64,000 bases of DNA from Eubacteriales bacterium (GTDB lineage Bacteria > Bacillota > Clostridia > Lachnospirales > JAITVM01), in contig JAVBOA010000006.1 in assembly GCA_031551135.1 (NCBI GenBank), positions 17,502 through 81,501 on the forward strand, read 5' to 3'. Of the stretch, positions 5,127-63,586 are shown one piece after another. The position numbers and the translations under genes are program-made. The notes under the pieces were generated by a model, which was not told the DNA's origin, ran no database searches, and saw only the letters and a program-made list of their open reading frames with translations. Position 1 is the stretch's first letter, and each line of letters opens with the position of its first letter.

Positions 5127-5157
5127 ACCCTCTATAAAGCTGTTTAAATTATCAAAA

Positions 5158-5171
5158 TGAAAATAGTATTA
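5158..5171. repeat. Solo terminal repeat (TGAAAATAGTATTA) of the family-1 palindromic element, overlapping the polC stop codon
   Basis: 14-nt identity to the right terminal inverted repeat of the full copies at 23268, 28880 and 49312. No partner arm nearby. Confidence 0.4.
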
Positions 5172-8100
5172 AAAGAAAGATAATTGATCTGTGTCGGGAA
5201 TCCCTTTCAAAATCTCCAGCTTTTTCAATAATTGAATAACTGTTTTTGTTGTCTTTGTTCTCTCTCTAAATTCTTCAATTGTAAAAAACTCTCCGTCTTT
5301 GCGCGCCTCCAAAATTGCGAAAGCCGCGTTTGAGCCAAGCCCCTGTATTGAACAAAGCGGCGGTAAAAGTCCGTTTTCCGTGACAATAAATTTCTTTGCG
5401 TCTGATTTATATAAATCCAGCGGCAAAAATTTCAAATTGCGTTTATACATTTCATATACCAGTTCCAAAATTGTCAGTGTTCCTTTTTCTTTGGCAGAAA
5501 TATCTTTTCCCATACTGTTCAATCTCTCAATTTCTCCAAAGACTTTATCGGCCCCCTGACACATTAATTCATAATCAAAATCTTCCGCCTTTACCGAAAA
5601 ACTGGCACCATAAAAACTATATGGATAATATATTTTAAAATATCCTATGCGGACCGTCATCATAACATACGCAACGGCGTGGCCTTTCGGGAACATATAT
5701 TTGATTCTTCTGCAAGATTCAATATACCAATCGGGAACTTTAGCCGCTTTCATAGTTTCGGACTCAGAATCGGTAAGCCCCTTGCCTTTTCTGACATTTT
5801 CCATTATTTTAAAGGCGGCTTTTTTTTCAACACCTTTATTTATCAAATAAACCATAATATCATCACGTGTCGGAATTACTTCTTTTAATGTAGCAACGCC
5901 GTCATGAATCAAATCCTGTGCATTATTAAACCAAACGTCCGTACCGTGAGAAAGTCCGGAAATCCGAACTAATTCCGCAAAAGATGAAGGCTCTGTATCC
6001 AAAAGCATTTGCCGCACAAAAGTTGTTCCGAATTCGGGAAGTCCCAAAGAACCGGTTTTACAGCCAAGCTCGTCGAGTGTAATACCAAGCGCCTTTGGCG
6101 AAGTGAATAAAGATATTACTTTTTCATCGCCCAAATCAACAGCGGTTGGGTCGATTCCCGTATTATCCTGCAAATAGCGAATTATTGTCGGAACATCATG
6201 ACCGAGAATATCTAATTTGAGCAAACGTCCGCTAATTGAATGATAATCAAAATGAGTCGTAATTACATTCGATTTTACGTCATTAGCCGGTCTTTGAATC
6301 GGACAAAATTCATAAATGCTATGGTCATTCGGTACAATCATCAGTCCGCCCGGATGCTGGCCTGTAGTTCTTTTAATGCCTGTACAGCCGTTTCGCAAAC
6401 GGTTTATTTCTGCACCTCTTGCGTTAATTCCTTTTTCCTCGAAATATTTTTTAACAAATCCGAATGCGGTTTTATCGGCAATAGTTCCGATAGTTCCCGC
6501 TTTAAAAACAAAACCCGTACCAAACAGCTCCTCTGTATAAGCGTGAGCTTTTGCCTGATATTCACCCGAAAAATTCAAGTCGATATCAGGTTCTTTATCG
6601 CCGTCAAAACCCAAAAAAGTCTCGAAAGGAATATCATGCCCGTCTTTTTTCAGCAGAGTTCCGCAAACAGGGCAATGCATATCGGGCATATCGCATCCCG
6701 AACCGCCCAGAAATTGCTTTACCGTGTCCGAATCAAAATCCGAATATTTGCATTCCGAACAGTAATAATGCGGCTGTAACGGATTCACTTCCGTAATACT
6801 CAGCATTGTTGCAACAAACGACGAACCGACAGAACCACGCGAACCAACAAGATAACCATCCTCCAGCGATTTCCAAACCAGTTTTTGAGCGATTATATAC
6901 ATTACAGAAAATCCATTTTTTATTATAGAATTAAGCTCTTTTTGAAGCCTCTCTTCTACAATCTCCGGCAAATTATCGCCGTAAATAGATTTCGCTCGCT
7001 CAAGCGAGATTTTTTTAATTTCATCTTCTGCACCGTCAATTTTCGGCGGAAAAGTCTCGTCAGGGATTGGTTTTATAATTTCTATCATATCCGCTATTTT
7101 ATTGGGATTTGAAACAATTATTTCATGTGCTTTTTCACGGCTTAAATAATTAAATTCCTTAAACATTTCCTCTGTATTCCGAAAATACAAAGGCGCTTGA
7201 ATATCCGAATCTTTAAAGCCTTCTGCAAACATAATAATTTTACGGTAAACATCATCATCAGGTTCTAAAAAATGAACATCGCAAGTAGCTACAACAGGCT
7301 TTTTATATTTTTCGCCGAGTTCAATTATTTCCTTATTCAAATCAATAAGCGCCTGAATATTCGGAACTTTGCCGTCTCTGAACAAAAATAAATTATTATC
7401 GATTGGCTGAACTTCGAGATAATCATAAAACTCAACCAGAGATTTTATATATTCATCAGCTTTTTTTTCGAATACAGCTTGAAAAATTTCTCCGGCTTCG
7501 CACGCGCTTCCCAAAATCAAGCCTTCTTTTTGCTTAATTAATTCTGATTTCGGAATCCGCGGTCGGCGGTAAAAATATTCCAAATGAGATTTCGAAATAA
7601 GCTCATATAAATTTCTTAGCCCAACATAATTTTTGACAAGAATTATTGCGTGATAAGTCTTTAATTTTTTCTTGTCTATTTTATCAGAGGCAAAAATATT
7701 AATCTCGTCAAGAGTTTTGATATTATTCTGAATCAGCATGTCAATGAATTTTATAAATATTTCCGCTGTCGCCTTAGCGTCGTCAGAAGCTCTATGATGA
7801 TTTTCCAAAGAAATTTCCAAATGTTCGGCAACTATATTTAATTTATGTTTGGATAATTCGGGCAATAAAAGCCTTGCAAGACCGAGAGTGTCCAAAACGG
7901 TATTATCGATTTCGATACCCAAATTATTTGCCGCAATACGAATAAATCCTGTATCGAAGCTTGCGTTATGCGCAACCAAAACCGAATCCTTTGCAAAATC
8001 CAAGAATTCTCCAAGTGCCTCTTCTATTTCAGGCGCGCCAATCAGCATATCATCAGTAATTTTCGTTAATTCAATAATTTTTTCAGGTAGTTTCATATGC

Positions 8101-9500
8101 GGATTAACAAAAATATTAAACTCATCTAATATCTTTCCGTCTTTTAATTTTACTGCGCCGATCTCGATTATACGGTCGGATGTAGCCGAAAGCCCCGTTG
8201 TTTCGATATCAAAAACGACATACTCGCTGTCAAAGCCTTGTGATTTAGGAAATTCAACAATCGCTCCCAAATCATCAACAATATAAGCCTCTACCCCATA
8301 AATAATTTTTATTTTATCTTTATTTTTATTCCAAACCTCCATAGCTTCCGGAAAAGCCTGAACAACGCCGTGGTCAGTTATTGCAACGGCTTTGTGTCCC
8401 CAGTAAATTGCACGTTCTATTAAAGATTTCGCAGAGCTTATTCCGTCCATCGAGCTCATCTGCGTATGTAAATGCAATTCTACCCTTTTTTCCTCCGCAT
8501 TGTCATTTCTGACTTTAGGCTTTTCATAAGGTCCGATTTCTTTCGCCATAATATTTACTTCACGAGAGAACTCGTCATCATTTACAGTGCCTTTGACAAT
8601 AATATAATTTCCGTTCTTTAATAATGATTTAAAATTGTTATCAAAATTATCGGGTTTTATAAAAAACTTAATGGTTACAGAATTATATTTATCTGTAACA
8701 CAAAATGAAATTAAATATTTACCTGATTTTGTTTCACGCAAATCAAATTCAAATATTTCGCCCTTAATAACCATCTCGTTGCCGATTCGCAAACTCTCCG
8801 AAAGTTTTGTTGTTTGGCAGACTTCGGCCAAGTTCGGGACAAATTTAATATTTGTACGCCTTTGAAAACGTTCATTCTTGTCTATATACGAATTATTTGC
8901 TGTTCCGGTTTTCGAATCCTCGTTTCTTTTTATTTCTACAGCGGCTTCAAATTTAGTCAATTTTGTTTCATTTTCAATCAGGCGTTTCCTTTCGATTTCC
9001 TTATCTTCTTCCGATAAAGGCATTTCTTTAAATTCAATTACAAAATCGAGATTCAGCACTTTTTTTAAATAAGATATAATCAATTTGTCAATAGCTCGTT
9101 TATATAGCATATATGATGAATTATTTTTGCAGTTCAGAATAATTTTTCTATCATCTATACTAAAATCCGAATCTTCAATGAATTTTGCGCAAACGGGAGA
9201 TTTCTGTTTAACCAGAAAAAAAATATTTTCCCAAATATTATCTATGCTATCTTTTGGAGGTAGCTCGAAATCAAAAAAAACATTAACGTCGACCGATGAA
9301 AGATAAGGCAAATCCGCCTTTATTTCCTCTGACAGAGAAGAAAGCATTTTTTGATGTATAAATTTTTGGGAAGATATATCAATATTAATTATTTTATTTT
9401 TTTCGTCCAAAGAAATATTCTCAATTTCACATTCGCCAAATACATTTACAATATTTTTTGAGAGATTAAGTTTTTCAAAGGCTGTTCGGAAAGATTTCAC
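5169..9500 (-). CDS. polC: DNA polymerase III alpha subunit, Gram-positive PolC type
   Basis: 1443 aa. PHP motif ELHLHTQMSSMDG. Inserted DEDDh exonuclease (VVFDIETTGLS ... AHNASFD ... HRASDDA). Zinc-finger region CSECKYSD...CPVCG. GTG start with AGGTGA RBS. Confidence 0.97.
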   Translation of the reverse strand: MKSFRTAFEKLNLSKNIVNVFGECEIENISLDEKNKIINIDISSQKFIHQKMLSSLSEEIKADLPYLSSVDVNVFFDFELPPKDSIDNIWENIFFLVKQKSPVCAKFIEDSDFSIDDRKIILNCKNNSSYMLYKRAIDKLIISYLKKVLNLDFVIEFKEMPLSEEDKEIERKRLIENETKLTKFEAAVEIKRNEDSKTGTANNSYIDKNERFQRRTNIKFVPNLAEVCQTTKLSESLRIGNEMVIKGEIFEFDLRETKSGKYLISFCVTDKYNSVTIKFFIKPDNFDNNFKSLLKNGNYIIVKGTVNDDEFSREVNIMAKEIGPYEKPKVRNDNAEEKRVELHLHTQMSSMDGISSAKSLIERAIYWGHKAVAITDHGVVQAFPEAMEVWNKNKDKIKIIYGVEAYIVDDLGAIVEFPKSQGFDSEYVVFDIETTGLSATSDRIIEIGAVKLKDGKILDEFNIFVNPHMKLPEKIIELTKITDDMLIGAPEIEEALGEFLDFAKDSVLVAHNASFDTGFIRIAANNLGIEIDNTVLDTLGLARLLLPELSKHKLNIVAEHLEISLENHHRASDDAKATAEIFIKFIDMLIQNNIKTLDEINIFASDKIDKKKLKTYHAIILVKNYVGLRNLYELISKSHLEYFYRRPRIPKSELIKQKEGLILGSACEAGEIFQAVFEKKADEYIKSLVEFYDYLEVQPIDNNLFLFRDGKVPNIQALIDLNKEIIELGEKYKKPVVATCDVHFLEPDDDVYRKIIMFAEGFKDSDIQAPLYFRNTEEMFKEFNYLSREKAHEIIVSNPNKIADMIEIIKPIPDETFPPKIDGAEDEIKKISLERAKSIYGDNLPEIVEERLQKELNSIIKNGFSVMYIIAQKLVWKSLEDGYLVGSRGSVGSSFVATMLSITEVNPLQPHYYCSECKYSDFDSDTVKQFLGGSGCDMPDMHCPVCGTLLKKDGHDIPFETFLGFDGDKEPDIDLNFSGEYQAKAHAYTEELFGTGFVFKAGTIGTIADKTAFGFVKKYFEEKGINARGAEINRLRNGCTGIKRTTGQHPGGLMIVPNDHSIYEFCPIQRPANDVKSNVITTHFDYHSISGRLLKLDILGHDVPTIIRYLQDNTGIDPTAVDLGDEKVISLFTSPKALGITLDELGCKTGSLGLPEFGTTFVRQMLLDTEPSSFAELVRISGLSHGTDVWFNNAQDLIHDGVATLKEVIPTRDDIMVYLINKGVEKKAAFKIMENVRKGKGLTDSESETMKAAKVPDWYIESCRRIKYMFPKGHAVAYVMMTVRIGYFKIYYPYSFYGASFSVKAEDFDYELMCQGADKVFGEIERLNSMGKDISAKEKGTLTILELVYEMYKRNLKFLPLDLYKSDAKKFIVTENGLLPPLCSIQGLGSNAAFAILEARKDGEFFTIEEFRERTKTTKTVIQLLKKLEILKGIPDTDQLSFF

Positions 9501-9508
9501 AAAATCAC

Positions 9509-10564
9509 CTAAATTTTATCTATTTCAGCAATTAAAGCATCTATTAATTCTTCTTCGTTTACTTTTTTTATAACTTCGCCTTTTTTTATAATAAGACCTA
9601 CGCCTTTTCCGCCGGCAATAGCCAAATCGGCTTCTTTTGCTTCGCCCGGGCCATTTACAACACAGCCCATAATCGCCACTTTTAATTCTTTTTTGATATT
9701 TCGGCAACGGTATTCAACTTCATTTGCAAGTTTTATCAAATCAATTTCGGTACGTCCGCAAGTCGGACAAGAAATAAATTCTATTCCGAATTTTCTTAAA
9801 TTCATCGATTTTAAAATTTCTTTTGCACATTTAATTTCCTGAACAGGGTCTGAGGTCAAAGAGACTCTTATTGTATCTCCGATTCCGCGCGATAAAATCG
9901 AGCCGATTCCGACCGCTGATTTAATAGAGCCTGTATATTCCGTTCCAGATTCGGTTATTCCGACATGCAAGGGATAAGAGGTCAGATTGCTGATAATTTC
10001 ATAAGCTTCTATAGAAAACATCACGCTGGAAGCTTTTAAGCTAACAACAATATTATCAAAATCAAGTGATTCTAAAATTTCAACATTGCGCATTGCACTT
10101 TCTACTAAACCGATCGGTGTAACGCCGTTGTATTTTTGGATAATGTCTTTTTCCAGAGAGCCGGAATTTACGCCGATTCTAATAGGAACAGAATATTCTT
10201 TAGCTTTTGCCACTACTTTCTTTACACGTTCTATATCGCCGATATTTCCGGGATTTATTCGAATTTTATCCGCACCGTTTTCTATAGCCTCGATTGCCAG
10301 CCTATAATCAAAATGTATGTCCGCAACTATCGGAATATTTGTAGATTTTTTTATTTCTTTTAGAGATTTAGCGGCTTCAGAATCTTTTATTGCAAGACGG
10401 GTAATTTCGCATCCCGCCTCTTCCAGTTTTTTTATTTGTGAAACGGTAGATTGCACATCTCTTGTATCCGTGTTATTCATAGACTGAATACTAATAAGGC
10501 TGTCACCGCCTATATAAACGCCGCCAACAGCTATTTTCTTCGTTATCTTACGGTTATAAAACAA
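9509..10564 (-). CDS. ispG: 4-hydroxy-3-methylbut-2-enyl diphosphate synthase (flavodoxin)
   Basis: 351 aa GcpE-family sequence (SMNNTDTRDV, RINPGNIG, FISCPTCGRT ... AIMGCVVNGPGEA). TTG start after GAAGGTGA. Confidence 0.95.
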   Translation of the reverse strand: MFYNRKITKKIAVGGVYIGGDSLISIQSMNNTDTRDVQSTVSQIKKLEEAGCEITRLAIKDSEAAKSLKEIKKSTNIPIVADIHFDYRLAIEAIENGADKIRINPGNIGDIERVKKVVAKAKEYSVPIRIGVNSGSLEKDIIQKYNGVTPIGLVESAMRNVEILESLDFDNIVVSLKASSVMFSIEAYEIISNLTSYPLHVGITESGTEYTGSIKSAVGIGSILSRGIGDTIRVSLTSDPVQEIKCAKEILKSMNLRKFGIEFISCPTCGRTEIDLIKLANEVEYRCRNIKKELKVAIMGCVVNGPGEAKEADLAIAGGKGVGLIIKKGEVIKKVNEEELIDALIAEIDKI

Positions 10565-13026: not shown

Positions 13027-13155
13027 AGTAATTCCTCCTAACCCATTTTTCGTTATTTCCAATTTGATATTTTTTCTGTTTTATAGATTGGAAATAGTAC
13101 AAGTATTATATATTTGTCGACATTATTTTGGGCTAAGAATAGGAAAAAACAAAAT

Positions 13156-20830: not shown

Positions 20831-20866
20831 TAATACTATTTTCATTATAATGGAAATAGTATAAAT
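20831..20866. repeat. Terminal-repeat-only mini-hairpin of the family-1 element
   Basis: ATACTATTTTCATT / AATGGAAATAGTAT, 14-nt arms with almost no loop. About 100 nt upstream of the carboxypeptidase start. Confidence 0.55.
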
Positions 20867-22482: not shown

Positions 22483-23187
22483 TTATGTATCAATAGAAAC
22501 AGTATTGCTTTTCAAATTTACTGTCGCTTTAATTTCTTTGTAATTCGGTAATTTTATAATAACTTCTTTTATGGTCTGGATTTTAGTATCGGCATCAGAT
22601 ATATCTCCAAATAATATATCGACATTATTAACCAGTAAATGTATATCGTCCAAATCGGATAAATTAACAATAGTTGTATCTTCTGTTAAATTATATTTGC
22701 TCATTAATCTGGACAAAACCAAAACCGCATTAAAAGCCTCTTTATTTTCAATTTTCAGTATTTGACCTTGATTAAAATTTTTAAAATCAAGCCCCGTAAC
22801 AATAGGAAGTTTATCCTTAAAGCCCGAAACTACTTCTAAAATAACACCTTCCGAGTCAATATATAAATATGTATCTTCCGAGTATTTGACATAGCCGCTT
22901 GGTATGCGCTCGATTATGTTTATTTCAATATTGTCAGGCAATTTTCTTTTTACAGCAACATCTTTAATATAAACATTTTCAGATAGCTTAGCTCTGGCAT
23001 TTTGAGTACTTGGCGTGAAGATACTTTTGTTTTCGTAGTTCAGAGCGCTTTTTATTTCTTCGGCAGATATAACTGAATTTCCATTAATTTTTATATTCTT
23101 AACTTTAAAAACCGGCAATGCGAAAACACAAACCATAGCAATTATAACAACACAAACTATTCCTACGATTTTAAATGATTTTTTCAA
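22483..23187 (-). CDS. ftsQ: Cell division protein FtsQ/DivIB (POTRA domain)
   Basis: N-terminal TM helix, then FKVKNIKINGNSVISAEEI (POTRA-like). Lies directly upstream of ftsZ. Confidence 0.8.
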   Translation of the reverse strand: MKKSFKIVGIVCVVIIAMVCVFALPVFKVKNIKINGNSVISAEEIKSALNYENKSIFTPSTQNARAKLSENVYIKDVAVKRKLPDNIEINIIERIPSGYVKYSEDTYLYIDSEGVILEVVSGFKDKLPIVTGLDFKNFNQGQILKIENKEAFNAVLVLSRLMSKYNLTEDTTIVNLSDLDDIHLLVNNVDILFGDISDADTKIQTIKEVIIKLPNYKEIKATVNLKSNTVSIDT

Positions 23188-23267
23188 AAACTTACACTCC
23201 CTAGCAATTAAATGTTTACGCCGGAATTTATCAAAATGTACTTTTTAAACAATAAAAACAATTACTT

Positions 23268-23383
23268 ATACTATTTTCATTTAGATAAGTAGAAAAAAAT
23301 TTTTCACAGCGGAGCGTTTCGCGCAATGCTTCAAGCGCGAAATGAAATATTTTTTTCTATCCTTAATATTGAAAATAGTATTA
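23268..23383. repeat. Family-1 nested-palindrome element, full copy 1
   Basis: ATACTATTTTCATTTAGATAAGTAGAAAAAAATTTTTCACAGCGGAGCGTTTCGCGCAATGCTTCAAGCGCGAAATGAAATATTTTTTTCTATCCTTAATATTGAAAATAGTAT. 13-nt perfect terminal inverted repeats plus an inner TTTCGCGC/GCGCGAAA hairpin. Confidence 0.9.
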
Positions 23384-23441
23384 ATAAAGCAAAACGATTC
23401 TAGACTGATTTTTTAAGTATACGCAACATGCATTATTTTTA

Positions 23442-23470
23442 ATGATACTTGTTAAATAGCATGATGTCAA
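23442..23470 (-). promoter_or_regulatory. Sigma-A type promoter upstream of ftsQ
   Basis: Minus strand reads TTGACA - 17 nt - TATCAT. It lies upstream of element copy 1. Confidence 0.55.
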
Positions 23471-23580
23471 TAAAATCTAAGGCAATTATATAAAAATAAT
23501 TCGCAAAATATTATACTACTTGTCGTTGTATATTGCAAACACCAAAAAAATCTGTAAAAAACTTCAATAGAGTTACGAGT

Positions 23581-24057: not shown

Positions 24058-24104
24058 TAGTGAGCCTCCAATCGCAAAGAGAGTTTTTAGAATAATCAAA
24101 ATAT

Positions 24105-24153
24105 TATACTATTTTTATTATAAAGGATAGAAAAAAATGAAAATAGTATTAAT
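24105..24153. repeat. Internally deleted family-1 element
   Basis: TATACTATTTTTATTATAAAGGATAGAAAAAAATGAAAATAGTATTAAT keeps both terminal repeats and the GGATAGAAAAAAA arm but lacks the GC-rich core. Confidence 0.6.
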
Positions 24154-27080: not shown

Positions 27081-27188
27081 TAATAATATAACCTCCTTAT
27101 ATTGATAAAAAAGAGTATTCTATTTTTGGCTATGGTTATAAATGAGAATACTAAACAATTATATCAAAATTTGATTAATAAATAAAGC

Positions 27189-27302
27189 AATACTATTTCC
27201 ATTTTTATATATATAAAAAGTTATTTCACAGCGGGACGTTTCGCGCAAGCTAAAGTGCATAATGAAATATTTTTTTCTATCCTCTGGAATGGAAATAGTA
27301 TA
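27189..27302. repeat. Family-1 element, full but divergent copy 2
   Basis: AATACTATTTCCA...TTTCACAGCGGGACGTTTCGCGCAAGC...AATGAAATATTTTTTTCTATCC...TGGAAATAGTAT. Same architecture. The left half of the inner hairpin is degraded. Confidence 0.8.
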
Positions 27303-27473
27303 AAATATCCTCATATCGCCGTATCATAATATTTTAAATCATTATAATGTTAAAATAAGTACAGATTATGTAGTAGCTTTATTTATTCCTGAAATTTGTA
27401 ATTAATTAATATATATATCGAAAATAATGCACGTTTGCTAAAATATTGTTTAAAAAAACAGCATTTTGTTTTT

Positions 27474-28864: not shown

Positions 28865-28879
28865 AATAATTTAATATTT

Positions 28880-28995
28880 ATACTATTTTCAATATGAAGG
28901 ATAGAAAAAAATATTTCATTTCGCGCTAGAAACATTGCGCGAAACGCTCCGCTGTGAAAAATTTTTTTCTACTTATTAAAATGAAAATAGTATTA
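28880..28995. repeat. Family-1 element, full copy 3 (opposite orientation on the plus strand)
   Basis: ATACTATTTTCAATATGAAGGATAGAAAAAAATATTTCATTTCGCGCTAGAAACATTGCGCGAAACGCTCCGCTGTGAAAAATTTTTTTCTACTTATTAAAATGAAAATAGTATT. Starts 16 nt after the glnA stop and ends 44 nt before the next ATG. Confidence 0.9.
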
Positions 28996-48121: not shown

Positions 48122-49294
48122 TTATTTTCTTGCAACATTGGTTTTTATTGCCGCTTCGGAAACTTTTTTTGCTACGCAAATACAAACATCTTTATTAAAC
48201 GGACTCGGAATAATATAATCTTCTTTTAATTCGCTTTCGTCAATCATTTCCGCTAGGCCTATGGCCGCGGCGATTTTCATTTCATTATTAATATCAGAAG
48301 CCCGTACATCCAAAGCACCTCTAAACACTCCCGGAAAAGCCAAGACATTATTGATTTGGTTAGGAAAATCCGAGCGTCCTGTCCCTACGATTCTTGCACC
48401 GCCCTCAAAAGCTAAATCCGGCATAATTTCCGGCACCGGATTCGACATTGCAAAAACTATCGCATCTTTGTTCATGGATTCTATCATTTCTTTTGTAACA
48501 ATTCCCGGCCCCGAAACCCCTATAAAAATATCACTGTTTTTAAGAATTTCGGCAAGCGAACCGCTTTCGTTGTTGGGATTTGTAATTTCTGCTATATTTT
48601 TGTAAACAGCATTATCGTATTCAACACCGCGGACTAAAGCACCTTTTCTGTCGTAAACAATAATATTTTTATAGCCGAAATCCAAAAGCAATTTCGAAAT
48701 CGCAGAACCGGCAGAACCGGCACCGGAGATTATCACTTTAACCTTTTCGGGCTGTTTTTTAACGATTTTCATTGCATTAATCAAAGCCGCCAAAGTTACG
48801 ATAGCCGTACCGTGTTGGTCGTCATGAAAAATCGGAATATCACATTCTTCTTTTAAACGTTTTTCTATTTCAATGCATCTCGGAGAAGAAATATCTTCAA
48901 GATTTATACCGCCGAAGCTTTTTGAAATAAGCTTAATTGTATTTACAATTTCGTCCGTATCTTTCGAATCAATACAAATCGGGAAAGCATCAACATCGCC
49001 AAATTCTTTAAAAAGAACGCACTTTCCTTCCATCACAGGCATTCCGGCTTCCGGTCCGATATCTCCAAGCCCTAGCACAGCCGTTCCGTCGGTAATTACC
49101 GCCACAAGATTCGAACGCCTTGTATATACATAAGATAAATCAGTATCTTTTTGAATCTCCAAACAAGGCTCTGCAACGCCCGGGGTATACGCAATCGATA
49201 ATTCTTCAGCGTTTTCAACTTTTGCCCTGCTTTTTATTTCTAATTTTCCTTTCCAGTCTTTATGCGCTTTAAGTGCTTTTTCTGAAAAATTCAT
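48122..49294 (-). CDS. NAD(P)-dependent malic enzyme (short form)
   Basis: ATG 49294 after GGAGG-N8. YTPGVAEPC, GLGDIGPEAGMPVMEGK, FGGINLEDI and FHDDQHGTAIV motifs. Confidence 0.92.
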   Translation of the reverse strand: MNFSEKALKAHKDWKGKLEIKSRAKVENAEELSIAYTPGVAEPCLEIQKDTDLSYVYTRRSNLVAVITDGTAVLGLGDIGPEAGMPVMEGKCVLFKEFGDVDAFPICIDSKDTDEIVNTIKLISKSFGGINLEDISSPRCIEIEKRLKEECDIPIFHDDQHGTAIVTLAALINAMKIVKKQPEKVKVIISGAGSAGSAISKLLLDFGYKNIIVYDRKGALVRGVEYDNAVYKNIAEITNPNNESGSLAEILKNSDIFIGVSGPGIVTKEMIESMNKDAIVFAMSNPVPEIMPDLAFEGGARIVGTGRSDFPNQINNVLAFPGVFRGALDVRASDINNEMKIAAAIGLAEMIDESELKEDYIIPSPFNKDVCICVAKKVSEAAIKTNVARK

Positions 49295-49311
49295 TAATTT
49301 GTCCTCCAATT

Positions 49312-49425
49312 AATACTATTTTCATTTTGATAGTAGAAAAAAATTTTTCACAGCGGAGCGTTTCGCGCAATGTTTCTAGCGCGAAGTGAAGTATTTTTTC
49401 TATTCTTTATATTGAAAATAGTATA
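49312..49425. repeat. Family-1 element, full copy 4
   Basis: AATACTATTTTCATTTTGATAGTAGAAAAAAATTTTTCACAGCGGAGCGTTTCGCGCAATGTTTCTAGCGCGAAGTGAAGTATTTTTTCTATTCTTTATATTGAAAATAGTAT. Begins 18 nt upstream of the malic-enzyme ATG, abutting its RBS. Confidence 0.9.
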
Positions 49426-49473
49426 ATAATCATACTATATCCATTTTTATTTATATAAACGATAAAGTCAAGA

Positions 49474-49517
49474 AAAATAAAAAAATGCAAAGATTTGGAT
49501 TTACCATTTCTTTGCAT
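49474..49517 (-). terminator. Rho-independent terminator after the 51-aa ORF
   Basis: ATGCAAAGA (49485..49493) / TCTTTGCAT (49509..49517), followed on the minus strand by a long U-rich run. Confidence 0.6.
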
Positions 49518-49518
49518 A

Positions 49519-49560
49519 TAATACTATTTTCATTTTGATAAGTAGAAAAAAATATTTCTA
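49519..49560. repeat. Truncated family-1 element (one arm only)
   Basis: TAATACTATTTTCATTTTGATAAGTAGAAAAAAATATTTCTA matches the left arm and stops before the GC-rich core. It sits between a stop codon and its terminator. Confidence 0.65.
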
Positions 49561-49563
49561 TAA

Positions 49564-49719
49564 TTAATCAATTCTATTTGCTTTTTTGCTTGAATTTTTT
49601 GCTTTGCCCTGAATCTCCGGAACAGGTTCAACATCATTTTTTTCTATGTGAGTTTTATGATTGCTCTCTGTTCCATGAGGTTCTTTCGGGTCTGGTCTGC
49701 GCATTCCTGCTTTAGCCAT
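49564..49719 (-). CDS. Small basic hypothetical protein (51 aa), not in the ORF track
   Basis: GAGGTGATATT-ATG. MAKAGMRRPDPKEPHGTESNHKTHIEKNDVEPVPEIQGKAKNSSKKANRID, TAA stop, with its own terminator. Confidence 0.45.
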   Translation of the reverse strand: MAKAGMRRPDPKEPHGTESNHKTHIEKNDVEPVPEIQGKAKNSSKKANRID

Positions 49720-49764
49720 AATATCACCTCAAATATATTATGCTCAGTTTTTTTTTAAATTATG

Positions 49765-49850
49765 CTGACGACCTAAAACAAAGTTCACACCAATTCCTCC
49801 CAACTTACCTAACCGCGCGGAATGGGTGTAAAAATCTAGTCGTTCGTCAG
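49765..49850. repeat. Family-2 hairpin repeat, copy A
   Basis: CTGACGACCTAAAACAAAGTTCACACCAATTCC...GGAATGGGTGTAAAAATCTAGTCGTTCGTCAG. About 85% identical to the reverse complement of 63474..63552. Confidence 0.8.
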
Positions 49851-49854
49851 TATA

Positions 49855-51327
49855 TTATAAAATCAGCATTGCAAAAATCGAAACAGCTCCCGAAATAAGA
49901 ATGATAATTAAATCATTCAATTTTAAAAATTTATGTAAACAATAAACCGTAAATAGAATTCCGACAATTACTACTAAAGAAAGATAATTTGATATTCCCG
50001 CTGTTATAGAAATTTTTATCATTTCGGAAAGCATAGAAATCATTGTCGTTATTAGCATTCCGCAAATTACGGGCAAAATCCAAGTTTTAAGCGATATAAA
50101 AACCTTTATTTCGGAAAAAGCTTTATAAACTAATTCAACCAAAAAATATGAAATGCAGGAAAAGCCTATTCCTATAGTAAATCCTAATATCGCCAAAATA
50201 TACGCCGCTCCGATTGAATTTATTTTTCCGGCACCAAAAGAATATCCTATACAGGATAAAAGTTTGACCAAAATCGGCCCGGGCAGAGCATTTGTAATCG
50301 GCAGCATTTGGCTATAGAAAACATCAGAAGAAACAAAACCGCCGTCCACAAATAATCCGTGCGCTACGGTTAAATATGCTTCGCCACCGCCAAAAGAAGT
50401 AACTGTAGAGATTATGCCGAATTTCAAATAATCTATTATTTCACTGCCGAACAAAATGTAAGCGATTGCGGCAAAAATCAATATAGCGGCGAGAAAATAT
50501 GAACAAACTATGAGAGTGCCTTTAATATCAATTTTATTTGTACTTCTTTTTTCACTCTTTGCGTCTAAATATGTAAATACAACACAAAGCAAAAGCATTG
50601 TATACATAATAATATTTTTCATCAGCGGAAAACTAAAACCTGTTCCCTTTCCCGAAAGAAGCACAAAAAAGACCGAGATTATTACACAAAGCGAAATTCG
50701 TATATATTTTAAAATCGAGTTTTTGTATTTTGAAAAATCCCCGACTGTGAATATTATAAAAAACACTAACAGTAAAAGGTCGATTGTTGATATATCCAAA
50801 AATGCTTTTCCCAATGAATCCTGCGGAATATTTGCAAATATTTCATAAATTAACGCACGTATTTCTTTTCCGCATGTCAAAAAAGCTGAAGCCAGCATAA
50901 TTATAATTTTATAATTTCTTTCGGTTTTGGAAGTATTCAGAACTTTAAGAATATAATGTACAAGCAAAAAAATAATAAACGCAGAAATCCCGATTGAAGC
51001 ATATTCAATTAAAAGCAAGCCTTGTTTATCCATCGTCGCTATCAAAGATAAAAGAATTACCGAAATAAAAACTCCCGGAAATGCCAAGGTATAGGCGGAT
51101 AAGAGCGAAAACAAAGCTCCTGAATGTTCTTTTCCGATAGCGGCGCTTAATTTTACCGGTAAAGCACCCGGTGTAATATTTGCAATTATTGTTTCCTCTG
51201 TGTATTTTTCCGACGAAACAAAGTTTTTATCTATAACAGCCTCCTTTTCAATAACCGGAATCAGCGCACTGCCACCGCCAAAACCAATTAAACCGATTTT
51301 TAAAAATGTTTTAATTAATTCAAACAT
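49855..51327 (-). CDS. CHR-family (chromate-transporter-like) oxyanion transporter, two-domain form
   Basis: 490 aa polytopic protein. N-terminal FLKIGLIGFGGGSALIPVIEKE and a second FGGGEAYLTV ... LPGPI half, as in duplicated CHR domains. Confidence 0.75.
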   Translation of the reverse strand: MFELIKTFLKIGLIGFGGGSALIPVIEKEAVIDKNFVSSEKYTEETIIANITPGALPVKLSAAIGKEHSGALFSLLSAYTLAFPGVFISVILLSLIATMDKQGLLLIEYASIGISAFIIFLLVHYILKVLNTSKTERNYKIIIMLASAFLTCGKEIRALIYEIFANIPQDSLGKAFLDISTIDLLLLVFFIIFTVGDFSKYKNSILKYIRISLCVIISVFFVLLSGKGTGFSFPLMKNIIMYTMLLLCVVFTYLDAKSEKRSTNKIDIKGTLIVCSYFLAAILIFAAIAYILFGSEIIDYLKFGIISTVTSFGGGEAYLTVAHGLFVDGGFVSSDVFYSQMLPITNALPGPILVKLLSCIGYSFGAGKINSIGAAYILAILGFTIGIGFSCISYFLVELVYKAFSEIKVFISLKTWILPVICGMLITTMISMLSEMIKISITAGISNYLSLVVIVGILFTVYCLHKFLKLNDLIIILISGAVSIFAMLIL

Positions 51328-57721: not shown

Positions 57722-57764
57722 AAAATAACCTCCAGTGTTTTTGATAAGCGTATAACGCCCACTT

Positions 57765-57880
57765 ATACTATTTTCATTTAGATAGGTAGAAAAAAATTTT
57801 TCACAGCGGAGCGTTTCGCGCAATGTTTCTAGCGCGAAATGAAATATTTTTTTCTATCCTTAATATTGAAAATGGTATTA
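57765..57880. repeat. Family-1 element, full copy 5
   Basis: ATACTATTTTCATTTAGATAGGTAGAAAAAAATTTTTCACAGCGGAGCGTTTCGCGCAATGTTTCTAGCGCGAAATGAAATATTTTTTTCTATCCTTAATATTGAAAATGGTATTA. Lies 44 nt upstream of the tupA ATG. Confidence 0.9.
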
Positions 57881-57899: not shown

Positions 57900-57928
57900 A
57901 GTTTAACAAATGTATATAATCGTGTCAA
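57900..57928 (-). promoter_or_regulatory. Sigma-A type promoter for tupABC
   Basis: Minus strand reads TTGACA - 17 nt - TAAACT. It is on the far side of the element relative to tupA. Confidence 0.55.
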
Positions 57929-63455: not shown

Positions 63456-63473
63456 CGAAAAATTATAACTACA

Positions 63474-63552
63474 CTGACGAACGATTAGATTTTCACACCC
63501 ATTCCGTGCGGTTAGGTAGAGAATGGGTGTGAACTTTGTTTTCGTTCGTCAG
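63474..63552. repeat. Family-2 hairpin repeat, copy B
   Basis: CTGACGAACGA-TTAGATTTT-CACACCCATTC-CGTGCGGTTAGGTA-GAGAATGGGTGTG-AACTTTGTTT-TCGTTCGTCAG. An 11-bp outer and an 11-bp inner stem are separated by an internal loop. Confidence 0.8.
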
Positions 63553-63586
63553 TATTTTAGAGTTCTGCGCTTTTAATCGCATAGAA

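Follow-up and report, generated by a model that had tools for sequence, protein, structure and literature searches.

What is the long palindrome that stands between the promoter and the start codon of ftsQ: a working part of the mRNA leader, or a piece of mobile DNA that has landed there? Reading the minus strand at positions 23187-23470 of the window (by which we mean the whole 64,000-nt stretch of DNA analysed here), one finds the ftsQ start codon at 23187, the palindrome at 23269-23380 and a promoter-like site at 23470-23442, and four more full copies of the same palindrome lie elsewhere in the window. The initial annotation had preferred a cis-acting RNA module to a selfish insertion. The target-site duplications, the deletion derivatives, the absence of the element from the corresponding spacers of relatives and the unrelated genes beside its copies all argue against that preference, and we consider it probable, with good confidence, that the element is a miniature non-coding transposon (MITE) which has landed between promoters and genes.

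The element proper is 112 nt long (the repeat measuring about 115 nt) and forms an imperfect palindrome over nearly its full length, closed at both sides by terminal inverted repeats of 11-12 bp (TACTATTTYCA...TGRAAATAGTA). These two ends are present in all five full copies, with one mismatch in the tupA copy. Coding capacity for a transposase is absent, each reading frame being short or interrupted by stop codons. The window contains five full and five partial copies in total, all of them intergenic. With the 3-bp duplications included in the coordinates, the copy in the ftsQ leader occupies 23266-23383 on the minus strand and scores 144.9 bits with the covariance model. The oldest full copy (27188-27303, minus strand, 113.7 bits) occupies the divergent spacer between the PBP gene and glnA, with about 109 nt separating it from the start of the former and 225 nt from that of the latter. 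The next copy (28878-28995, plus strand, 145.7 bits) is located between glnA, whose stop codon precedes it by 13 nt, and the MBL-hydrolase gene, which starts about 44 nt beyond it. The malic-enzyme copy (49311-49426, minus strand, 131.1 bits) is followed 5 nt downstream by a GGAGG ribosome-binding site and by the malic-enzyme ATG at 49294, and the last full copy (57763-57880, minus strand, 142.4 bits) sits in the spacer from which tupA and AFOR diverge, the tupA ATG (57721) being about 43 nt away. Four of the full copies, although they stand beside unrelated genes, are 92-96% identical to one another, which points to recent spread, and the PBP copy shares 75-78% identity with the others. The neighbouring genes, identified through Pfam, encode FtsQ, a class-A PBP, glutamine synthetase, an MBL hydrolase, malic enzyme, a TupA-like binding protein and AFOR.

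Five shorter copies, which had been missed initially, were also found, and they are best read as products of decay. At 24104-24151 on the plus strand lies an internally deleted copy, in which 33 nt of the left arm are joined to the right terminal repeat; it is antisense to the flanking minus-strand genes, and the covariance model gives it 30.6 bits on the plus strand and 15.3 on the minus strand. A remnant consisting of the terminal repeats only, a 30-nt palindrome to which no orientation can be assigned, is found at 20831-20864, 22 nt upstream of the start of the carboxypeptidase ORF (20810). A degenerate deleted copy at 13056-13101 on the minus strand, comprising the left arm and a decayed right terminal repeat, gives a weak match (19.9 bits, E = 0.12); it adjoins the start of the gene at 12118-13047/13062 on the upstream side and is sense to that gene. 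The remaining two are solo right ends. One (49520-49558, minus strand, E = 3e-5) is sense to the local genes and directly follows the stop codon of an ORF of about 52 amino acids (49717-49560), upstream of the malic-enzyme copy. The other (5138-5170, plus strand, E = 0.08) contains a 22-nt stretch matching the malic-enzyme copy, abuts the TAA with which the gene at 5169-9500 ends and is antisense to the minus-strand genes. Internally deleted, terminal-repeat-only, degenerate and solo-end forms are thus all present within the one window.

The clearest mark of mobility is a 3-bp direct repeat, TTA or TAA, which is perfect around six of the seven two-ended copies. It reads TTA/TTA at the ftsQ (plus-strand reading), MBL and tupA copies and at the deleted copy 24104-24151, and TAA/TAA at the malic-enzyme copy and the remnant 20831-20864; at the PBP copy it is imperfect (CAA/TAA), with two of three positions matching. 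The middle base of the duplication is identical on both sides in all seven copies (the chance rate being about 0.30 per copy), and because it is the same and not complementary, the flanks constitute a direct repeat and not a continuation of the inverted one. Taken alone, the outermost T and A could pass for such a continuation. A TA duplication of the IS630/Tc1 type was considered and rejected, as it needs an 8-nt target with an internal repeat, and a 3-bp TNA duplication fits all flanks, including the TGA/TGA pair in the metagenome contig L091.

MITEs are described as carrying terminal repeats and target duplications, being shorter than about 200 bp, lacking a transposase, being predicted to fold into a long hairpin and often being co-transcribed (PMC3184786). 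The present element matches the published description in its small size, absence of a transposase, terminal repeats, target duplication and dispersed similar copies. It also breaks assemblies: the short-read contigs L081 and L082 of the same organism stop 31 nt inside the element, and contig L118 spans from the tupA copy to a family-2 repeat. The sequence also occurs in the read sets SRR23967709 and SRR23967707. Neither the 64-kb window nor the loci of relatives and metagenomes that were compared contained an autonomous insertion sequence bounded by these ends.

One might instead consider a REP/REPIN-like sequence, or a protein-binding DNA palindrome, which would be maintained as DNA and owe its spread to recombination or to a tyrosine transposase of the RAYT type, and which would not be a DDE-type MITE. 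REP, BIME and REPIN sequences are dispersed intergenic palindromes, as the present copies are, and can influence mRNA stability (PMC3184786); in a homologue from a relative (L001, described below), changes on both arms moreover maintain the palindrome. However, the 3-bp direct duplications that flank the copies are not a REP trait, the length of about 112 nt is far above the 20-40 bp given for REPs (PMC3733652), and the element lacks the GTAG or CGTC tag that REPs carry, its ends reading TACT...AGTA. RAYT linkage is likewise a feature of REP sequences, and an origin of this kind seems to us extremely unlikely.

Several copies abut stop codons because TAA serves as a target, and the duplication then regenerates the stop codon. 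This proximity also bears on a reading of the element as a bidirectional intrinsic terminator or insulator, in which a GC-rich apical stem stands between A7 and T7 runs. The layout of A-run, GC hairpin and T-run is visible in both the alignment and the folds, and copies do follow stop codons (13 nt after glnA, at gene 5169-9500, at the small ORF ending at 49560 and in contig L094), but the TAA target explains the latter without any termination. The consensus terminator scan called none of the copies, the loop is 10 nt long, and a 10-nt bulge and a weak A-U stem separate the T-run from the GC stem. In addition, three copies lie between a promoter-like site and its gene, including the cell-division gene ftsQ, which a strong terminator would silence. 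We therefore consider termination very unlikely as the role of the element. A terminator acting in one orientation only was discarded separately, the hairpin and U7 layout being nearly symmetric on the two strands.

Turning to placement, the element is asymmetric inside, with the 10-nt bulge CGCTCCGCTG on one arm, and its orientation is therefore well defined. With the covariance model the full copies reach 114-146 bits when read in the sense direction, against 53-63 bits in the antisense direction, and a profile search likewise gives 102-123 bits forward and 28-37 bits in reverse, so that the orientation is unambiguous. These scores confirm the initial annotation in that each of the five full copies has the sense orientation with respect to the closest gene downstream, and the distances to the start codons that it listed match ours to within 1-2 nt. 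Its observation that all five lie 5′ of a gene is true as well, but carries no information. Intergenic DNA makes up 9% of the window. Since most genes are co-directional on the minus strand, 41 of the 45 spacers, corresponding to 88% of the intergenic length, precede one gene or more; chance alone would thus put all five copies 5′ of a gene with a probability of about 0.5.

The proposed fixed orientation has fared in a mixed way. For the full copies it holds in five of five cases (p = 1/16), but two of the four derivatives that can be oriented are antisense (24104-24151 and 5138-5170), the other two being sense (49520-49558 and 13056-13101) and 20831-20864 being unassignable. The pooled tally of 7 sense to 2 antisense is not significant. 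Most simply, then, the shared orientation of the five full copies is a small-sample effect, and a fixed orientation is not established as a rule. As a side observation, a real orientation bias would agree with the five sense full copies, and the copy in L001 is sense to its nearest gene too, with the two distances (86 and 116 nt) nearly tied. We also looked at an outward-facing promoter inside the element as a source of such a bias and dropped it, the only candidate being a single 9/12 match in the MBL copy.

The same observations can be taken as signs of an exapted leader module, which would have arrived by transposition and whose full copies would be retained or favoured only where they are transcribed in the sense direction. 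The sense hairpin would then stabilise the 5′ end, offer RNase III or RNase Y a site for processing, or modulate translation, with a conserved 10-nt single-stranded bulge CGCUCCGCUG exposing an anti-Shine-Dalgarno-like CUCC, and antisense copies would be harmful and either purged or persist only after internal deletion. Consistent with this, all five full copies are sense, and both antisense copies in the window are deletion remnants without the core. Nevertheless, the full-copy pattern would arise by chance as often as once in 16 times, divergent spacers hold two of these five copies, and in the metagenome contig L094 a related full copy lies 21 nt upstream of a start codon in antisense orientation. 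On balance, we regard such exaptation as rather unlikely, and the remaining evidence for and against it comes from the promoters, the folds and the relatives.

Near-consensus promoters had been reported upstream of the ftsQ and tupA copies, and both were confirmed. The ftsQ site, TTGACA-17-TATCAT (23442-23470, minus strand), matches 11 of 12 consensus positions and lies about 52 nt upstream of the element; the tupA site, TTGACA-17-TAAACT with an upstream TG (57900-57928, minus strand), matches 10 of 12, and about 20 nt separate the end of its -10 hexamer from the element. To these can be added a PBP site, TTAACA-16-TATTAT (27326-27353, minus strand), for which this interval is about 22 nt. At both tupA and PBP, some 12-15 nt would lie between the inferred transcription start and the element, so that the mRNA would carry a 5′-terminal hairpin; this speaks for the leader module.

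The ftsQ leader is the best documented of these cases, with the order promoter, 52 nt, element, 80 nt, ftsQ, and no promoter-like site of at least 9/12 was found in the interval between the element and ftsQ. In the relative L114, whose FtsQ is 41% identical and whose gene order ftsQ-ftsZ-carboxypeptidase is the same as in the window, ftsQ is preceded at a distance of only about 75 nt by the same promoter block, ATTATTGACAT...CAAGTATnATTAA, and the element is missing. Because L114 keeps the block without the element, the ftsQ promoter appears to be real and the element to be a later insertion into the leader, although this evidence is indirect; the ftsQ copy should therefore be co-transcribed. 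Thus, the suggestion that the whole hairpin is transcribed in the mRNA leader stands for the ftsQ copy, by inference from the L114 block and from the interval devoid of promoter-like sites. As judged from sequence, the hairpin very probably belongs at least to the ftsQ mRNA leader, and co-transcription of copies into leaders is likely, with ftsQ as the best-supported case.

Being transcribed is one thing, and being selected as an RNA is another. The element folds with -36.0 kcal/mol on the sense strand and -35.8 kcal/mol on the antisense strand, with z of about -6 on both strands (the ftsQ copy by itself gives -36 kcal/mol, z = -6.5), and a transcript of either orientation would be expected to form a long interrupted hairpin of about -36 kcal/mol. 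Of the private stem substitutions, four break the sense pair while leaving G-U on the antisense strand, and one does the reverse. In the equal folding of the two strands and this pattern of stem mutations we see no signal of selection on a sense-strand RNA, and both weigh against the leader module. So does the fate of the CUCC in the 10-nt bulge, which is lost in the PBP copy and in L001. The searches with Rfam gave no match at the gathering threshold over the window, and none at E <= 1 over 49300-49900. A conserved leader RNA would be expected before related genes and in related genomes; here, the neighbouring genes have no common function, and the element is missing from the ftsQ leader of L114 and from the surroundings of glnA in L002-L005. 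Taken together with the antisense copy in L094, these results turn against the cis-acting RNA module proposed at the outset, and a selected RNA function for the element is not supported.

The relatives themselves are distant. The window has a GC content of 36%, the best matches to its glutamine synthetase, in Defluviitaleaceae and Eubacteriales MAGs, reach 70-75% identity, and the nearest relatives in the collections reach 42% for the next-best FtsQ and 75% for the best glutamine synthetase. Among the five relatives with glnA loci considered here, four (L002-L005) have no copy near glnA; these and L114 are without the element at the sites in question, but too distant for an empty site to be recognised at the nucleotide level. 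The gene order PBP-glnA-MBL is not conserved among 80 glnA loci of relatives, and only L001 carries a copy. The invariant core GCGCGAAACGYYCCGCTGTGAAA had no matches in the genome, metagenome and viral collections, BLAST searches of the element against plasmid and phage collections returned only chance-level matches of 25-32 nt (E of at least 0.1), and a literature search on the terminal sequence gave nothing relevant.

The L001 homologue deserves a closer look. In this MAG, whose glutamine synthetase is 74% identical, a single diverged copy (82 bits) lies in the divergent spacer upstream of glnA and shows the same architecture, namely an outer terminal-repeat stem, an A/T-run stem, a GC apical stem, a 9-10-nt loop and a 3′-side bulge, with a fold of -38.5 kcal/mol. 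The hairpin architecture and the motif CGCTGTGAAAAATTT persist despite about 30% divergence, which is a point in favour of the leader module. By eye, seven stem pairs across all three stems are changed on both sides with pairing kept (an automatic count scored two of these seven, MAFFT misaligning the central hairpin of L001), and these double-sided changes indicate that the hairpin has been maintained, unlike what neutral decay would give. Transposition, DNA structure or RNA could each be the cause of this maintenance. Changes from one Watson-Crick pair to another are silent as to the strand and as to whether DNA or RNA is the level concerned.

Further elements with these ends come from metagenomes. 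The related full copy on contig L094 has the ends and also the CGCT(Y)CGCT..GAAAAATTT motif in common with the window copies, scores 57.5 against 44.5 bits on the two strands, and lies antisense upstream of the start codon mentioned above, with a TAA duplication which doubles as the stop codon of an upstream ORF. A gapped search with the two ends revealed, in addition, a dispersed family in genomes of about 41-48% GC, having the same 12-nt ends and unrelated interiors, with perfect duplications in five of seven assessable copies (TTA, TGA, TAA, TAA, TTA). The recurrence of TACTATTTYCA ends and TNA duplications on otherwise unrelated metagenomic MITEs hints at a widespread transposase lineage. 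Another metagenomic candidate for a sister MITE, "family A", was set aside and not used, as it forms the interior of a longer palindrome whose flanks are identical in every contig, apparently a single locus that was sampled repeatedly.

With the MITE as the preferred reading, the following course of events can be proposed. A transposase acting in trans, and encoded outside the window, would recognise the 11-12-bp termini TACTATTTYCA and TGRAAATAGTA and insert the element at TWA (TNA) trinucleotides, these 3 bp being duplicated in the process. Copies would survive only in the AT-rich intergenic 9%, and in a gene-dense, mostly co-directional region, where nearly all intergenic DNA is 5′ of a gene, several of them would end up downstream of an existing promoter and ahead of the start codon. 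Consequences for the processing, stability or translation of the mRNA, which the analogy with Correia and ERIC elements suggests, would then be a side effect of the insertion.

The element has not been catalogued, having no Rfam match and no significant match in the plasmid or phage collections, while MITEs as a kind are ordinary in bacteria. If our reading is right, the finding is a routine one, adding one more family, from a sparsely sampled part of the Clostridia close to Defluviitaleaceae, but it would also account for the short-read assembly breaks at these sites and would serve as a warning against annotating leader RNAs or small ORFs at the copies. Moreover, one and the same hairpin of about -36 kcal/mol in the leaders of ftsQ, the PBP gene, the malic-enzyme gene and tupA would offer a natural experiment.

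How does the element compare with known systems? As to the duplication, the IS1031 subgroup of the IS5 family has a strict TNA target and generates a 3-bp direct repeat (PMC12016507). This 3-bp TNA duplication (TTA or TAA here, and also TGA in the metagenome family) is common to the IS1031 subgroup, to the Tourist-type MITEs of PIF/Harbinger and to the present element, whereas the inverted repeat of ISLrh, the sole IS1031-group comparator, reads GAACCTGTCTAGTATCT and is unlike TACTATTTYCA (PMC12016507). The duplication is hence the one trait that may suggest an IS1031 link, and we have not assigned the element to a family. Among Firmicutes, RUP of Streptococcus pneumoniae and bcr1 of the Bacillus cereus group are MITE-type repeats of about 107-155 bp which are intergenic, hairpin-forming and partly co-transcribed, RUP duplicating TA. 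They differ from the present element in their ends and duplications, and no sequence similarity to them appeared in any search.

Further parallels in form and setting are found in Neisseria and in enterobacteria and yersiniae. The Correia elements (CREE/NEMIS) of Neisseria are, like the present element, non-coding, about 100-155 bp long, bounded by terminal inverted repeats and a short target duplication, and dispersed in intergenic DNA, often between a promoter and its gene. As long hairpins within co-transcribed RNA, they can alter transcript processing as well as promoter context (PMC3184786). In contrast, the present element has no sequence similarity to them, duplicates TWA (3 bp) where Correia elements duplicate TA, and resides in a Clostridia lineage near Defluviitaleaceae. 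The ERIC/IRU sequences of enterobacteria and yersiniae are similarly imperfect palindromes, of about 127 bp, in transcribed intergenic DNA. Their effects are said by De Gregorio et al. to depend on orientation. An influence of ERIC/IRU on mRNA stability has been reported (PMC3184786). They are unrelated to the present element in sequence and host. By analogy, the hairpin of the present element may affect host mRNAs as Correia and ERIC elements do, and if a genome-wide orientation bias were true, the family would join these two as a case of MITE-driven post-transcriptional modulation, here in a Gram-positive anaerobe.

Insertion of the family-1 element, the ~115-nt MITE of the window, is in two cases placed precisely at the end of a gene. 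At window positions 5169-5171, and at 1011-1013 of L094, a metagenome contig carrying a related full copy, the TAA target-site duplication is also the stop codon of the preceding gene. Insertion at precisely this codon does not disrupt the ORF. Among the relatives, a family-1 homologue is carried only by the MAG L001, where a diverged copy (9771-9884) lies in antisense orientation upstream of glnA. The oldest copy of the window (27188-27303) has the same placement and orientation with respect to glnA, and the genes across the spacer from glnA are not the same in L001 and the window. The two glnA-upstream copies may descend from one ancient insertion common to both genomes or may have been inserted independently.

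Near the malic-enzyme copy, an unannotated small ORF of ~52 aa (49560-49717, minus strand; product MAKAGMRRPDPKEPHGTESNHKTHIEKNDVEPVPEIQGKAKNSSKKANRID) with a GAGGTG ribosome-binding site is flanked by a family-2 hairpin on one side and a solo family-1 end on the other, and could encode a small spore or stress protein. The junction of this truncated family-1 end with its flank gives rise to a near-consensus (11/12) promoter-like site, TTGATA-18-TATAAT (49535-49564, plus strand), which faces antisense to the small ORF.

Family-2 itself is a second hairpin repeat of the window, ~85 nt long and unrelated to family-1, with an outer stem of CTGACGAACGA/TCGTTCGTCAG and an inner stem of CACACCCATTC/GAATGGGTGTG; no match to it was found in Rfam. 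Its two copies (49770-49854, minus strand, and 63470-63557, plus strand) share 92% identity across 49 nt and are oppositely oriented relative to the co-directional minus-strand genes, and the short Logan contig L118 of the same organism ends at the 63470 copy.

At ftsQ, the promoter block ATTATTGACAT-N-CAAGTATnATTAA is common to the window (23442-23480) and the relative L114 (9900-9945), and its conservation extends into part of the spacer, with FtsQ proteins only 41% identical. This conservation may point to an operator that overlaps the promoter.

The 12-nt family-1 ends recur in metagenome contigs. In L083, L086, L087, L090, L092, L095, L096, L099-L103, L106, L107, L111 and L112, a 127-129-nt segment with these ends is nested in a larger perfect palindrome, the flanks of which (attaaattctacatcgaatg / cattcgatgtagaatttaat) are identical in all of these contigs, and the inner segment is found in either direction between them. 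The palindrome may be a single locus sampled across many related metagenomes, and its structure could be of an invertible or a foldback type.

A dispersed family of MITEs, 103-129 nt long (L085, L088, L089, L091, L098, L105, L108 and L110), hosted by genomes of ~41-48% GC, also carries the same 12-nt ends (ATACTATTTCCA...TGGAAATAGTAT) and TNA duplications, around an interior unrelated to that of window family-1. Sharing of these ends and duplications by MITEs with unrelated interiors suggests a widespread, putative transposase lineage that recognises them.
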